Part shown: in pieces, positions 4,483 through 49,917 of the stretch
Numbering within the stretch: the first letter of the stretch is position 1
Layout: the number at the start of each line of letters is the position of its first letter
Source of the DNA: Myxococcota bacterium
GTDB taxonomy: Bacteria; Myxococcota_A; UBA9160; PR03
Direction: 5' to 3'
Assembly: GCA_039794265.1 (NCBI GenBank)
Contig: JBDIVR010000006.1
Location: 71,573-135,572, forward strand
Length of the DNA stretch: 64,000 nucleotides
Made by a program: the position numbers and the translations under genes
The notes under the pieces: generated by a model
The model's input: only the letters and a program-made list of their open reading frames with translations
Databases searched by the model: none
Told to the model about the DNA's origin: nothing

Positions 4483-5568
4483 ATGATCGACTTCGAGCCC
4501 ACCGAGGAGCAGCAGCTCATCGTCGACACCGTGCAGCAGTTCGCGCGCAGCGAGATCCGGCCGGTGGCTCGCGAATCGGAAGAGGCGAGCAAGCTGCCCG
4601 AGAAGGTGCTGTCGGCGGCGCACGAGCTCGGGCTCGTGGCGAACTCGCTGCCCGAGTCGGCCGGCGGCAGTGGTGAGCGCAGCGCGATCACCGGTGCGCT
4701 GATCGCCGAGGAGCTCGCGTGGGGCGATCTCGCGATCGCGCTGGCGATCCTGTCCCCGGGGCTCTCCGCGTTGCCGGTCGCGGAGTGGGGCACCGACGCG
4801 CAGAAGGAGTCGCTCGCCCGCTTCGTCGGTCCGGACTTCGTCCCCGGCGCGCTGGCGATCGTCGAGCCGCGCTTCGACTCGGACCCGTTCCGTCCCGCGA
4901 CGCTCGCCCGCCGCGACGGCGACGGCTTCGTGCTCGACGGCGCCAAGTGTCTCGTTCCGTGGCTCGACGGCGCGGATTCGGTACTGGTCGTCGCCAACGA
5001 AGGCGGCTCGTCGCAGCTGTTCCTGGTGCCGCGCGATGCCGGGGGCCTGAAGGTCGAACCCGAACGCTACATGGGCATCCAGGCGCTCCCGACTGCCGAG
5101 CTGACTCTGTCCGGTGTTGCCCTGCCCGCCTCGGCAAGGATCGGCGGCGATGCGGGCGTGGACATGCGCCGGTTGATCGCGCAGGGCCGCGTGGCGCTTG
5201 CGGCGATGGCGGTGGGCCTGGCGCGCGCAGCCTTCGAGACCGCGCGCGACTACGCGAAAGAGCGTCAGGTCTTCGGCGTACCGGTCGCCACCAAGCAGGC
5301 GATCGCGTTCAAGCTCGCCGACATGGCGCTCGAGATCGACGGTGCGCGGCTGCTCGCCTGGGAGGCGGCCTGGAAGCTCGACCGGGGCGAGGACGCCACC
5401 CGCGAGGCGCTGCTGGCGCGACGCCAGGCCAATCGCGTCGCGCTCGAGGTCGCCGACGGCGCCGTGCAGGTGCTCGGCGGGCACGGCTACATCCGGGACT
5501 ACCTGCCGGAGCTGCACCTGCGCAACGCCCGCGGCTTCACGTCGTTCGAGGCGCTGGCGCTCGTCTAG
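4483..5568 (+). CDS. Acyl-CoA dehydrogenase family protein (short, 361 aa; possibly the non-canonical partner of the next gene)
   Basis: The ATG at 4483 lies 2 nt after the thiolase stop. [17 protein letters not shown] and a GGHGYIRDY...FEALALV C-terminus fit the ACAD fold. The usual TEPxAGSD loop reads VEPRFDSD. The protein ends 7 residues after the conserved Glu position. Confidence 0.85.
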
Positions 5569-6842: not shown

Positions 6843-7094
6843 GTGGCCAACGTCAGCAGCGAACTCGTCGAGATCCTCGTCTGCCCGGAGACGAAGCAAC
6901 CGGTGGCGCTTGCCGCACCGGACGTCCTCGACGCCATCAACGCCCGCATCCGCGCCGGCTCGCTGCGCAATCGCGGCGGCCAGCCCGTCCCCGCGGAGCT
7001 GGCGGAGGGCCTCGTCCGCGAGGACGGCAAGATCCTCTACCCGGTCGACGACGGCATCCCGGTCATGCTGATCGAGGAATCGATCGAGCTCTGA
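6843..7094 (+). CDS. Trm112/YcaR (UPF0434) family small protein
   Basis: GTG at 6843 preceded by GGGAG. The 83-aa product has [15 protein letters not shown] near the N-terminus and [18 protein letters not shown] at the C-terminus, matching the Trm112-like family pattern. Confidence 0.75.
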
Positions 7095-7104
7095 CCGCTC
7101 CGGT

Positions 7105-7187
7105 GTCAAGAAAGGGGCCGGGTTCGTTCGTCAACTTTTCCCCCGGATGGGGGAAAAGTTGACGAACGAACCCGGCCCCTTTCTTGA
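7105..7187. repeat. Perfect 83-bp palindrome, copy 1 of a recurrent element (40-bp arms, 4-nt GGAT apex)
   Basis: The left arm gtcaagaaaggggccgggttcgttcgtcaacttttccccc is the exact reverse complement of the right arm. It lies between the convergent stops at 7094 and 7210. A degenerate extra copy of the terminal 15-mer (ggcccccttctcgac) follows at 7188..7202. Confidence 0.95.
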
Positions 7188-7209
7188 CGGCCCCCTTCTC
7201 GACGGCGGG

Positions 7210-8007
7210 TCACTGCGCGAACTCGCGGCGCTTGAGTTCGCGGACGTACTCCGACAGTTCGGGATCCCCCGTCACCATCGCCGAGCTGCGCTCCTCGCAT
7301 TCGCGAGCCGCCTGCCGCAGCGGCTCGAGGTCGATGTCGAGGCCGAGGAACGGCAGCCCGCGCTCGAGCAGCGCCAGGGAGCCGCGTGCGTTCGGCGTGA
7401 CTTCGATGTAGTGCGGCAGGCCTGCCCACAAGCCGGCCACCTGACAGCCGCGATCGCGCAGGCGCTGCCCGAGCACGCCGATCATGCCGGTCGGACCCGC
7501 GTAGCGGACCGGCTCGACCGCCAGCTCGCGCAGCAGCGCGGCGTCGCTCGCGACGCCCGTCACATCGACGGGCCGCGAGTAGAGGACGTCACCGAGAAAC
7601 GCGCCGAGCAGCAGCACGCGCTGGATGCCGAGGGCATCGACGACGCTCAGCACATGATCCGACCAATCCCGCCAGCGCAGATGCGGCTCGACACCATGAC
7701 ACATGACGAGATCGCGGCCGGTGAGGCCTCCTTGCGGCCGCGCAGCAGCGAATCCGAAGTGCGTCGTCGGCCACTCGAGACCGCGCGCCACGCCGTCCTC
7801 GACGGTGGAGAACGGCCGCCGGACGGTGAAGTCGAAGTACTCCTCCGCGTCGATCTCCGCGAGCGGCGCCGCGCCGAGCGTACTCGCAACGAAGCGCACG
7901 GCGGTCGTGGCCGCCTCGCCAGCATCGTTCCAGCCTTCGAGGGCCATCAGCAGGGCGGCGTCGCGCAGGACGGGTCGCACGTGAAAGCGGAGCGGGCCTT
8001 CGGTCAC
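7210..8007 (-). CDS. PAC2 (proteasome assembly chaperone 2-like) family protein
   Basis: 265 aa. The N-terminal LLMALEGWNDAGEAATTAV motif and overall length match the bacterial PAC2 family as I remember it. Confidence 0.7.
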   Translation of the reverse strand: MTEGPLRFHVRPVLRDAALLMALEGWNDAGEAATTAVRFVASTLGAAPLAEIDAEEYFDFTVRRPFSTVEDGVARGLEWPTTHFGFAAARPQGGLTGRDLVMCHGVEPHLRWRDWSDHVLSVVDALGIQRVLLLGAFLGDVLYSRPVDVTGVASDAALLRELAVEPVRYAGPTGMIGVLGQRLRDRGCQVAGLWAGLPHYIEVTPNARGSLALLERGLPFLGLDIDLEPLRQAARECEERSSAMVTGDPELSEYVRELKRREFAQ

Positions 8008-18221: not shown

Positions 18222-18303
18222 CCGCTCGGCCACCAGAGGGGCCACGGGCGGGTCCGAAGTCCGAGCATCCTTAGCCCGGGGCCTCCGGACTGACAAGGCG
18301 AGC

Positions 18304-18380
18304 GTCAAGAAAGGGGCCGGGTTCGTTCGTCAACTTTTCCTTCGGAAAAGTTGACGAACGAACCCGGCCCCTTTCTTGAC
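18304..18380. repeat. Perfect 77-bp palindrome, copy 2 of the recurrent element (37-bp arms, TTC apex)
   Basis: gtcaagaaaggggccgggttcgttcgtcaacttttcc / ttc / ggaaaagttgacgaacgaacccggcccctttcttgac. The arms are identical to copy 1. It lies in the divergent region between topB (minus strand) and the HIT gene (plus strand). Confidence 0.95.
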
Positions 18381-18641
18381 GGCTTGCGGTCCGCGGGTTG
18401 CAGGAGGGGGGCTCCTTGCCCTACTCCGATCGGATGACGGATCGCGCGCTGGCCACTCCGGTCCTCGCCCTGGGTGCCGGCGACGTGCCGGCGTGATCCG
18501 AGTGGTCTCGGACCGCACGCGGTGGCGCCCGGGGGGAAACGCGCGATCTCGATCGCAACATGACCGCGGCGATTGCCGTGGCGCAGGACGCCGTCGCGCG
18601 GGTCGCCGCCGCCGACGAGCCGTGACGGGAGGACCCGACGC

Positions 18642-19020: not shown

Positions 19021-20253
19021 CTACTCGACGAGATTCGCCGGCACCGGCATCACGTTCCACGTGAACGCGGAGCCGACCGGCTGGCGCGTGTGGATGACCT
19101 CCTTCGCCCACCGGCCGTCCTGCCAGACGTAGCGCCGGACCTCGCCCTGGGTGTCGCTGGCGACGTACAGCTCGTCGCGGCCGTCGCCGTCGAGATCCGC
19201 GAGGATCGCTGCGTGCTCGAAGCCGCCGGACGCGCCGTCGATCAGGCTCTTCGTCCAGCGACCTGTGGCCGGCGCCGGCCCGGGCCGCAGCAGCCACAGG
19301 CCGCTCCGCATGCCGGCCGCGACCATCTCCCGCTGGCCATCGCCGTCGACGTCACCGGCCGTCAGGAAGCGGGTCTGCGTGTCGTCGAGCTCGGCGATCA
19401 CCGCGCCGTCCTTCGGGTCGGTCTCCGCGTCGTAGCGGCGGATCTCGACCTGGCCGCCGGAGACGGCCTCGACCGCCACGTACAGCTCGTCGCGGCCGTC
19501 TCCGTCGACGTCCGCGACGAGGATCTCCTTGGCGTGTCGGTCGCCCAGGTCCGCGACCTCCACGCGACCCTCACCCTTGGCGGGGATGTAGCGCGTCACC
19601 ATGCCGTGCTGGGGGGTTCCGTCGAGCCGGTTCGGCTCGCTCGGCGTCGCGTAGACCTCGAGCATGCCGTCGCCGTCGAGGTCGCCGACCTCGATCTCGT
19701 GTACGAACGTGTCGGCCTCCGCGTCGATCTCGGTGACCTTCCACGAGCCGTCGTCCTGTGGCGCGACGATCGCGACGATGCCCTGGTCGTGCGTCGCCAC
19801 GGCGATGTCGAGCTTGCCGTCGCCGTCGAGGTCGGCGATCTCGGCGTCGCGCATGCGGCTGAACTTGCCGCCGAAATCCCTCGTCCAGAGCGTTTCGGCG
19901 ACGAAGCCATCGGGCGCTTTGCGCCACAACTTCAGCGCCGCGGCGCTGCCCCCGAGCGTGAGGATCCCGTCTTCGTAAGCCATCGCCTTGTGGAAGACGT
20001 TGCTGTCCGGGTCGTCGATCGCCGTCACGGTCCATGCGCCGCCGCGGCGCAGCAGGATCTCGAGGCGGGCCGCCTGGGGCTTCGGCAGCACCTTGCCTTC
20101 CGGAGACACCTCGAACGGCGAGAGCGAGAGCAGGAGCCCGTAGGGCAGGTCGTCGCTCTTGCCTCCACAGGCGAGAGAGAGCCCGAGCGAGAACACGAGC
20201 AGGAGGGACAGTGCGGGCGCGCGGAACGGAGCGGTCGGCGGACGGCGGATCAT
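19021..20253 (-). CDS. FG-GAP/VCBS-repeat lipoprotein
   Basis: The true start is the ATG at 20253, with GGAGGAGG upstream. It has a lipobox (LSLACGG) and five D(L/V)DGDG calcium-type repeats (DLDGDGKLD, DLDGDGMLE, DVDGDGRDE, DVDGDGQRE, DLDGDGRDE). The upstream part of ORF 19021..21576 is antisense to hisS. Confidence 0.85.
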   Translation of the reverse strand: MIRRPPTAPFRAPALSLLLVFSLGLSLACGGKSDDLPYGLLLSLSPFEVSPEGKVLPKPQAARLEILLRRGGAWTVTAIDDPDSNVFHKAMAYEDGILTLGGSAAALKLWRKAPDGFVAETLWTRDFGGKFSRMRDAEIADLDGDGKLDIAVATHDQGIVAIVAPQDDGSWKVTEIDAEADTFVHEIEVGDLDGDGMLEVYATPSEPNRLDGTPQHGMVTRYIPAKGEGRVEVADLGDRHAKEILVADVDGDGRDELYVAVEAVSGGQVEIRRYDAETDPKDGAVIAELDDTQTRFLTAGDVDGDGQREMVAAGMRSGLWLLRPGPAPATGRWTKSLIDGASGGFEHAAILADLDGDGRDELYVASDTQGEVRRYVWQDGRWAKEVIHTRQPVGSAFTWNVMPVPANLVE

Positions 20254-35228: not shown

Positions 35229-35327
35229 GGGGACGTTCCTTCCGAGGTTTCATTACGCCGACCGTGAGGCTTGTTGGAATCCGTTCACCCCCGGTCGGCG
35301 TAATGAAACCTCGGAAGGAACGTCCCC
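35229..35327. repeat. Spaced perfect inverted repeat (36-bp arms, 27-nt spacer), second palindromic element type
   Basis: ggggacgttccttccgaggtttcattacgccgaccg at 35229..35264 is the exact reverse complement of 35292..35327. It is intergenic, between the hypothetical gene and the methyltransferase 3' end. It is preceded by the tandem motifs gacaaaggggacg and gagaaagggggacg. Confidence 0.9.
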
Positions 35328-43154: not shown

Positions 43155-43366
43155 GATGCTGCCGAGGATACCGCGCGGGCCGCCCCGCTCGGGATCTGTA
43201 GCGGGGCCAGGCCTCGTCGATGCCGTCCTGCACATGAGCCGACCGGGGCTGCGCATCGCGAAGTCGCTCGCGATCCTGGCGGAAATCCTGCGCGCGGACG
43301 CACCCGGACTCGCCATCGGTTGGCGCGGGCGGGGCTGACGGGAACTCGGGACCTGACCAAGATTCC

Positions 43367-43444
43367 GTCAAGAAAGGGGCCGGGTTCGTCTGTCAACTTT
43401 TCCGTCCGGAAAAGTTGACAGACGAACCCGGCCCCTTTCTTGAC
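43367..43444. repeat. Perfect 78-bp palindrome, copy 3 of the recurrent element, with mirrored substitutions
   Basis: gtcaagaaaggggccgggttcgtCTgtcaacttttccg / tc / cggaaaagttgacAGacgaacccggcccctttcttgac. TC>CT in the left arm is matched by GA>AG in the right arm relative to copies 1 and 2. It is followed by an extra terminal 15-mer, ggcccttttcttgac, at 43445..43459. Confidence 0.95.
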
Positions 43445-43493
43445 GGCCCTTTTCTTGACGAGACGGACTGGGTCGTGGTACAAGCCGGTCGTG

Positions 43494-49865: not shown

Positions 49866-49917
49866 GTCAGGAAAGGGGCCGTCAAGAAAGGGGCCGGGTT
49901 GGATCCGTCAACTTTTC
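49866..49917. repeat. Solo left arm of the recurrent palindrome, with tandem terminal 15-mer (copy 4, no right arm)
   Basis: The sequence reads gtcaggaaaggggcc gtcaagaaaggggccgggtt ggatcc gtcaactttt. It matches the left arm of copies 1-3 apart from the central ggatcc. No inverted partner follows. The TGA stop of the AMIN-domain gene (49908..49910) lies inside the gtcaac motif. Confidence 0.8.

Follow-up and report, generated by a model that had tools for sequence, protein, structure and literature searches.

What are recurrent, perfectly symmetric palindromes of about 80 bp doing between the genes of an uncultured Myxococcota lineage? The question is raised by a 64,000-nt stretch of contig JBDIVR010000006.1 (Myxococcota bacterium, assembly GCA_039794265.1; hereafter the window), in which a first-pass annotation had noticed three such palindromes and one solo arm. 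A pattern search and an inverted-repeat scan confirmed this count: the 37-nt arm GTCAAGAAAGGGGCCGGGTTCGTTCGTCAACTTTTCC has six matches in the window, which form three back-to-back inverted pairs (hereafter doublets), and none in 100 dinucleotide-preserving shuffles of it. We found the same unit in multiple copies in several other genomes and, in sister genomes, on both sides of a transposase gene related to the REP-associated tyrosine transposases (RAYTs; REP, repetitive extragenic palindrome). We conclude that the palindromes are very probably non-autonomous mobile elements of the REPIN type, and that a RAYT-like (TIRYT-type) HUH/Y1 transposase gene in the sister genomes has this unit as its terminal inverted repeats.

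Four of the six matches to the arm are exact (7105-7141 and 18304-18340 on the plus strand, 7152-7188 and 18344-18380 on the minus strand), and those of copy 3 have two mismatches (43367-43403, plus; 43408-43444, minus), namely two substitutions, TTCGTC to TCTGTC, that are mirrored in both arms; the variable block of copy 3, CGTCT, is mirrored as well. The stems had been described as free of mismatches, with apexes of 2-4 nt, and so they are, with arms of 38-40 nt that are 100% complementary (Table 1). The loci had also been placed correctly, but copy 1 ends at 7188 rather than 7187 and the solo arm itself starts at 49881; the feature had been drawn out to 7202 because a degenerate extra half-unit adjoins copy 1. 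As single-stranded DNA, the window doublets fold with -53 to -57 kcal/mol and z about -13 (copy 1, -57.3 kcal/mol, z = -14), and a single arm, with -0.3 to -1.8 kcal/mol, is on average weaker than its shuffles, i.e., it does not fold. By direct count the arm has 54% G+C in a window of ~71%. The outermost stem, AAGAAA/TTTCTT, sits directly outside a 9-bp G+C clamp (GGGGCCGGG/CCCGGCCCC), so that the initial statement that no T-tract flanks the stems was misleading.

Table 1. Positions of the repeat units and of the short motifs beside them in the window
Feature	Position	Strand	Arms or sequence	Remarks
Doublet, copy 1	7105-7188		arms 7105-7144/7149-7188, 40 nt, 100% complementary	apex GGAT (4 nt); inverted-repeat scan
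Doublet, copy 2	18303-18381		arms 18303-18340/18344-18381, 38 nt, 100% complementary	apex TTC (3 nt); inverted-repeat scan
Doublet, copy 3	43365-43446		arms 43365-43404/43407-43446, 40 nt, 100% complementary	apex TC (2 nt); inverted-repeat scan
Solo arm (singlet)	49881-49917	+	GTCAAGAAAGGGGCCGGGTT-GGATCC-GTCAACTTTTC	seventh arm of the window
Extra outer half-unit by copy 1	7189-7203	-	GGCCCCCTTCTCGAC; reverse complement GTCGAGAAGGGGGCC	degenerate; 13/15 identical to GTCAAGAAAGGGGCC
Extra outer half-unit by copy 3	43445-43459	-	reverse complement GTCAAGAAAAGGGCC	14/15
Outer half-unit preceding the solo arm	49866-49880	+	GTCAGGAAAGGGGCC	14/15
CTGAC motif (tentative part)	7091-7095, 18290-18294, 43353-43357	+	CTGAC	starts exactly 14 nt left of the arm

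A scan with the 20-nt outer box against one genome per species gave at least 51 further loci (labelled L001 onward) from three metagenome-assembled genomes (MAGs), namely "uncultured proteobacterium PRO3," a bin labelled Spirochaetales and a Polyangiales bin. The repeat is thus multi-copy in several genomes; the first-pass annotation had stated that a lack of further copies in the rest of the genome would weaken the case for a mobile repeat. From outside inward, the unit consists of an outer box (GTCAAGAAAGGGGCCGGGTT), a variable block of 5-6 nt, an inner box (GTCAACTTTTC), an apex stem and the centre. The variable block comes in at least 13 variants (CGTTC, GGATTC, CGTTTC, GGCAT, GGAAAT and others), the apex stem (2-12 bp) varies in sequence as well as in length, and the centre measures 1-5 nt. 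Most arms start with CGTC, C standing at position -1 in 22 of 27 copies. Solo arms occur inside contigs too (L002, L006, L009 and L024), and they end cleanly at TTTTC.

The symmetry of the doublets is close to absolute. Among 28 complete doublets, 25 are perfect and three have one mismatch, and an alignment of the doublets shows changes on both sides at 15 of the 39 stem pairs (37 cells), including CG<->GC and AU<->UA flips, to which no route leads via a wobble pair; one-sided or broken cells inside the arm number only three. The earlier view that this is symmetry of the DNA itself, without wobble positions, is therefore borne out: mirrored changes include transversions, and wobble or one-sided states are almost lacking. 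Identical doublets, apex included, are found at different loci (L001 = L007; L022/L023/L052; and L016 = L028, both with the apex of window copy 3), showing that whole doublets do spread, and one apex is found with spacers that differ by one mirrored base (GGATTC, GGATCC). Behind a DEAD-box helicase gene, an orthologous doublet of close relatives (L052, 18280-18358; L073/L074, 18296-18374) has as its sole difference the 3-nt centre (AAA versus GAA), such that the unpaired centre drifts and the arms stay identical.

The first-pass annotation had proposed a DNA-level process involving a hairpin-recognising transposase, and had suggested a search for RAYT genes. Such a gene was found between the same arms. 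At L042 (5007-5933), in the same MAG as many doublets, two inverted solo arms enclose 927 bp with a single open reading frame (ORF) of 264 aa, whose TGA stop (5034-5036) lies within the GTTGAC of one arm. Its product matches Pfam Y1_Tnp with 23.2 bits (cut-off 23), its C-terminal tail matches Bac_DnaA_C (8.5e-4) and HTH_23 (1.4e-3), both below the Pfam cut-offs, and its homologues carry the JGI name "REP element-mobilizing transposase RayT." A single-sequence phmmer search of the PDB gave no match for the transposase. With a family profile, the N-terminal half matches 4er8, the E. coli TnpA-REP (1.7e-5), and the C-terminal half matches DnaA domain IV (2.8e-5). An AF2 model (pLDDT 91.9) has a helical C-terminal domain, and its best Foldseek match in the PDB is 4er8_A, "REP associated tyrosine transposase bound to a REP hairpin" (E 1.2e-7, target-normalised TM-score 0.72), followed by the ISDra2, IS608 and IS200 TnpA structures. 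Conservation is at least 90% for both the HUH motif (N59 H60 H62; NHxH) and the Y119..N123 P124 motif. The product of the arm-flanked gene is a RAYT-like HUH/Y1 tyrosine transposase with a C-terminal helix-turn-helix (HTH) resembling DnaA domain IV.

The gene keeps both its place and its arms. One neighbourhood, PNP_UDP_1 ... SNF2 helicase, is common to orthologues with 74-77% identity and to a cluster that bears the annotation "transposase [Myxococcota bacterium]," and the arm-flanked cassette lies in this PNP_UDP_1 / hypothetical ... SNF2 helicase setting in L052, L053 and L073-L078, which include contigs of 4.45 and 4.77 Mb. Among the complete or nearly complete genomes with the transposase are GCA_027493655.1 (4.77-Mb contig) and GCA_048499615.1, and MCL4683658.1 is an example of the protein. 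The neighbourhood was the same in all places read, across 74-100% protein identity, and it is in this sense, not as a whole-genome count, that we call the gene single-copy. Inverted arms accompany the gene in L042, L052, L053, L066 and L073-L078; they stand on both sides wherever the contig extends past both gene ends, and short-read contigs stop just after the gene. In the lineage of L052, L053 and L073-L078, every arm seen has GGGGTCGGG in place of GGGGCCGGG, both in the two gene-flanking arms and in the two arms of a doublet 7 kb away, showing that gene and repeat population change together; the element is usable as a lineage marker, its C and T variants tracking the transposase lineage. 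More distant homologues are again enclosed by inverted repeats that hold two GTCA boxes: at 57% identity the flanking arms have the same outer box and another inner box (GTCAGGAAAC), and at 49% identity the gene is flanked by a different 40-nt inverted repeat with two GTCAGGTTATT boxes. Just upstream of the RAYT start codon we also observed a conserved leader with a small hairpin (CCCCGCGGTCCCGGGGAGA; CCCCAGAGGTCCCGGGGAGA in L065), at 5829-5896 in L042, ~9935-10000 in L052/L053, ~9975-10000 in L065 and ~3265-3290 in L066. This leader, kept even in homologues of 49-57% identity, may control the transposase at the level of translation or transcription.

The element is present in some relatives and absent from others at one orthologous site, a comparison that the first-pass annotation had also suggested. 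The site of copy 1, between the PAC2 and Trm112-like genes, is occupied in L071/L072 (PAC2 93% identical), where the contig ends inside the arm. In L067 (PAC2 89%), from a MAG that has the family elsewhere, only a 15-nt half-unit (GTCAACCCAGGGGCC) is present, immediately before the neighbour's stop codon. The site is empty in L068-L070 (PAC2 85%) and in L057/L058 (75-80% nucleotide identity), which have 22-42 nt of unrelated spacer. A metagenome scan with a 1179-aa neighbour protein gave relatives of at most 67% identity, none with the repeat, and these served as distant empty-site comparisons. Neither target-site duplications nor direct flanking repeats were seen in 27 copies, whose inverted flanks add no more than 1-3 nt to the palindrome (gCC|...|GGc).

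Based on these data, we propose the following model. On single-stranded DNA, such as the lagging-strand template, a doublet would snap into a hairpin of 38-45 bp, whose two conserved boxes would be recognised by the transposase, supplied in trans. The enzyme would cut and rejoin at the foot of the hairpin in the manner of IS200/IS605 insertion sequences, moving or copying the hairpin to new intergenic sites, and the 15-nt outer half-unit would be either left behind or used as a landing site. The identity of the arms would come from their partnership in the hairpin, in which a change in one arm is reverted or copied across, either when mismatches in the hairpin are repaired or when the template is switched within the strand, leaving only spacer and apex free to vary. 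Template switching is known for quasi-palindromes. The arms at the transposase gene, ~900 bp apart, are not homogenised, which fits an arm identity that arises through pairing in the hairpin. A likely by-product, rather than the reason why the family exists, is a strong hairpin at the 3′ end of transcripts, which could lead to termination or make the RNA more stable.

The half-unit itself is a copy of the 15-nt outer end (GTCAAGAAAGGGGCC) and stands on one side only at three of the four window sites, with a background probability of 8e-4 for at least 10 of 15 matches. Besides the window solo arm and one empty site, four of 27 aligned doublets have it on one side (two of them in the window), and every transposase cassette has it on the 3′ arm. 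Candidate roles are an excision footprint and a landing site. A CTGAC lies 14 nt to the left of all three window doublets, with a background of 6.4e-4 per position and strand; this spacing is not chance in the window, and CTGAC at a fixed offset was not seen in the other genomes. The motif may, tentatively, be a degenerate half-unit or a cleavage or target motif.

How does this family relate to known systems? In REPINs, both ends are conserved, the spacer between them is free and shows compensatory changes, and excision leaves a footprint (PMC3116915); the REPIN-RAYT system is defined for Pseudomonas and E. coli (PMC3116915; PMC5581495). We took as references Pseudomonas fluorescens SBW25 and E. 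coli (Bertels & Rainey 2011, PMC3116915; Nunvar 2010; TnpA-REP structure 4er8). As in these systems, short extragenic repeats occur as inverted doublets that form a long hairpin and also as singlets, conserved ends enclose a free spacer in which changes are compensated, a single-copy HUH/Y1 transposase gene fixed at one chromosomal position has the repeats on its two sides, and insertion leaves no target-site duplication, with a short end remnant associated with excision; this set of features is the REPIN-RAYT signature. The best structural match of the transposase, TnpA-REP, is a further likeness. Unlike in the reference systems, there is no GTAG tag, most arms starting with CGTC instead; the doublets are nearly all perfect, with a centre of 1-4 nt in place of a longer spacer; the enzyme has an extra C-terminal DnaA-like HTH; and the host belongs to an uncultured Myxococcota lineage, not to the gammaproteobacteria.

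The system is closer to the "TIRtron/TIRYT" variant, or to a TnpA-REP of the subclass 2.1 kind as judged from domain architecture only, because its unit is a plain inverted-repeat arm rather than a small hairpin and its enzyme has a DnaA-like HTH. In TIRtrons and TIRYTs (Di Nocera et al. 2013, PMC3733652), too, a RAYT-like gene is flanked by terminal inverted repeats (TIRs) rather than by REP hairpins, and the inverted repeats are a dispersed family, often of dimers. A C-terminal domain like Bac_DnaA_C/HTH_23 is shared with TIRYTs and with subclass 2.1, the DnaA-like HTH subclass of TnpA-REP (Quentin et al. 2018, PMC6006769). By direct reading, the arms come close to the TIRYT motif GGGGWSAS, at seven of eight positions with GGGGTCGG and at six of eight with GGGGCCGG. 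Yet TIR families are only moderately abundant and found in few genomes (PMC3733652), and no REP-like repeats adjoin subclass 2.1 genes in the 2018 survey (PMC6006769), whereas the family described here is dense (three doublets and one singlet in 64 kb), has almost perfect symmetry and is conserved in several genomes. In view of that survey, the dense family is a useful addition and not a new kind of system.

Two other groups are less close. The CGTC-tagged REPs (Di Nocera et al. 2013) likewise start with CGTC and lie mostly as dimers behind gene 3′ ends, but they are 8-9 bp stem-loops with a CCA tail and without a transposase; our unit has no stem-loop and has a transposase. With IS200/IS605 elements (IS608, ISDra2) the system shares the HUH/Y1 fold, duplication-free insertion and a single-stranded hairpin as the likely substrate. 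Those elements, however, are multi-copy and autonomous, lack terminal inverted repeats and have separate hairpins in subterminal position at either end, whereas here the gene is single-copy in a fixed neighbourhood and only the miniature doublet is multi-copy.

The first-pass annotation did not recognise the repeat as a described family. For the sequence this stands: we found no match in Rfam 15 at gathering scores over the whole window and none to the arm in a plasmid collection, and a full-text literature search with the arm sequence returned unrelated primers only, so that the sequence family is new in these sources. The kind of system, REPIN/RAYT and TIRtron/TIRYT, is already known (PMC3116915, PMC3733652), which makes the novelty smaller. 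What the family adds is an extension of REPIN-like systems, in which a domesticated transposase goes with a hairpin population, from gammaproteobacteria to uncultured Myxococcota and to the RAYT branch with a DnaA-like HTH, which has been little studied. Most curious is the near-absolute mirror symmetry together with this HTH-bearing branch. With its invariant boxes and an always-mirrored spacer and apex, the family lends itself to studies of hairpin recognition by Y1 enzymes and of the homogenisation of palindrome arms.

Several observations weigh against a REPIN-type assignment. The unit is not itself an imperfect palindrome, as classical REPs are, and the transposase scores 58 bits against the NCBIfam equivalog NF047646 (REP_Tyr_transpos), which has a cut-off of 80. 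At the transposase gene, the two arms differ in the variable block (e.g., GGAAAT versus GGATCT), as doublet arms never do; simple internal deletion of the cassette thus does not account for the doublets, and one has to assume a further step that makes the arms symmetric. A tblastn search with the RAYT gave no match in the 64-kb window, so that the transposase is linked to the window copies by homology to sister genomes, and among the first 51 loci it gave a match in L042 only. The putative link between enzyme and element is one of position and co-variation only. Finally, an nhmmer search detected no decayed copies in the window, for which high turnover or recent spread is needed.

The near-absolute symmetry may also be read as a product of the life cycle of the element rather than of selection. 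An HUH enzyme with a DnaA-like HTH would then move or nick a strand of one arm length, the second arm would be regenerated by rolling-hairpin-like copying or by obligatory hairpin repair, and the half-unit would be both footprint and landing pad. We consider this doubtful; if true, it would add a replicative mode that is new to bacterial Y1 transposases, and the family would be the first high-copy repeat family tied to TIRYT/subclass 2.1 enzymes.

The elements might instead be bidirectional intrinsic terminators or mRNA 3′ stabilisers that are selected by the host, kept for their RNA structure and not mobile themselves. Gene contexts in the window were assigned from Pfam matches and period-3 GC, and the initial description of them (convergent once, divergent twice, head-to-tail for the solo arm) was upheld. 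Copy 1 lies between convergent Trm112-like (plus strand, stop at 7094) and PAC2 (minus strand, stop at 7210) genes, copy 2 between divergent topA (minus) and HIT (plus) genes, copy 3 between divergent genes for an AidB-like acyl-CoA dehydrogenase (minus) and a PaaX-like protein (plus), and the solo arm (copy 4) at a head-to-tail junction. On such contexts the first-pass annotation argued against a terminator role, and in doing so it overstated the case, relying on copies that are atypical: the 24 classifiable copies of the family comprise 12 convergent, 10 tandem and two divergent ones, both of the latter being window copies 2 and 3, and this departs from a 1:2:1 expectation (chi-square about 9, p about 0.01, by our own arithmetic). 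A gene 3′ end is thus faced by at least one side of 22 of the 24 copies. A stop codon lies within 17 nt outside the arm for 41 of 90 arms (35 TGA, 5 TAG, 1 TAA), compared with about 14% of random 17-mers. Moreover, AAGAAA-GGGGCCGGG...CCCGGCCCC-TTTCTT has, on both strands, the layout of an A-tract, a GC clamp and a U-tract.

Against host-selected terminators stand the two of three window doublets between divergent 5′ ends and a consensus terminator scan around the three copies, which was negative, though it counts at most 20 stem pairs. The palindromy runs to centres of 1-2 nt, beyond what RNA folding needs, the mirrored changes include transversions with almost no G-U intermediates, solo arms exist, inverted arms flank a transposase gene, and there is no Rfam match. 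We therefore regard terminators or stabilisers as an improbable account of the family, and termination may well come as a by-product, in line with what has been proposed for REPs. Such a side effect on transcript ends or stability is plausible from the tract-and-clamp layout and the 3′-end bias and, if real, would place transcript 3′ ends at ...CCCGGCCCCUUUCUU on both strands.

The initial claim that all copies are intergenic holds for the doublets and not strictly for the solo arm, whose GTCAAC box contains the TGA stop (49908-49910, minus strand) of an AMIN-domain gene; overlap with genes is limited to a stop codon within an arm. In both this gene and the L042 transposase gene, the TGA of the arm's TTGAC box is the stop codon of a gene running into the arm, an analogue of the TAG stops supplied by GTAG REPs (PMC3733652). 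We also considered CTGA as a target motif and dropped it, since a TGA:TAG:TAA ratio of 35:5:1 fits normal stop usage at 71% G+C, so that most of it is accounted for by real stop codons.

A further account holds that each doublet is made in situ from a single arm: the transposase nicks and the 3′ end snaps back to copy the arm, as in rolling-hairpin replication or terminal resolution, so that the mobile or founding unit is the single arm and symmetry a product of the chemistry. Parvovirus hairpins are resolved by HUH enzymes. This would agree with doublet arms that are always identical, even in the free spacer and apex, when gene-flanking arms differ, with apex stems that vary in length and sequence yet are always paired to centres of 1-4 nt, and with the clean ends of solo arms at TTTTC. 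The identical whole doublets at different loci described above (three groups, apex included) speak against it, the same apex with a GGATTC or GGATCC spacer fits arm-to-arm conversion after mutation equally well, and a second template switch would be needed to rejoin the right flank. We accordingly think in situ formation unlikely, to much the same degree as terminators.

Most improbable of all is an ordinary miniature inverted-repeat transposable element derived from an insertion sequence with a DDE transposase, or an operator for a dimeric DNA-binding regulator (a site for such a protein, suggested in the first-pass annotation, gained no support): long perfect terminal inverted repeats, a size of ~80 bp and TTGAC motifs resembling -35 boxes or half-sites would suit either, but the 27 copies lack target-site duplications, their flanks doing no more than lengthening the palindrome, no gene other than that of an HUH/Y1 transposase was found between inverted arms, promoter consensus scans around the three window copies found nothing, and copy number, placement behind stop codons and a free spacer are unlike a regulon's operators. 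The outward TTGAC was also considered as a -35 box and dropped, as no acceptable -10 was seen by eye at 16-18 nt. Integron attC sites, CRISPR repeats and DNA-uptake sequences were ruled out by the perfect symmetry, the lack of arrays and the transposase link.

The REPIN-type family also leaves its mark on the assemblies. Outer-box matches lie very often at contig ends in the fragmented bin, as expected for a multi-copy repeat, and where these lineages were assembled from short reads, contigs break off a few bases inside an arm or ~20 nt past the RAYT stop (L008, L013, L014, L018, L020, L023, L026, L027, L029, L033-L036, L038-L040, L044-L048, L050, L054, L055, L071, L072 and L076-L078). With short-read contigs ending inside it, the element is a main cause of MAG fragmentation here. 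The bin CAYOHN01 (GCA_964403735.1, L002-L051), labelled "uncultured Spirochaetales bacterium," has the repeat family, the RAYT cassette and a PAC2 of 89% identity in common with lineages annotated as Myxococcota or Deltaproteobacteria, and its label looks wrong. At L019 (~6895-6924, the end of CAYOHN010000192.1), the contig terminates in ...GGGGAAAGAGTGTAGATCTCGG..., a sequence similar to the Illumina universal adapter in reverse complement, with the junction at the point of likeness between adapter and element apex (GGGGAAAAG); this contig end is probably adapter contamination.

Two other repeats were seen in the window. A second perfect palindrome at 35229-35327, between convergent genes, has 36-nt arms (GGGGACGTTCCTTCCGAGGTTTCATTACGCCGACCG) that are 100% complementary and a 27-nt loop; it is unique in the window, missing from all fetched loci and unrelated to the arm family. 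It starts with GGGGAC, close to the TIRYT motif GGGGWSAS, and may be a doublet of a second such family. At 19160-19841, in a coding region, four imperfect 46-nt direct repeats lie 150-315 nt apart, with the core GCCGTCGCCGTCGAG on the plus strand; these look like part of a repeat-domain protein and are unrelated to the palindromes.

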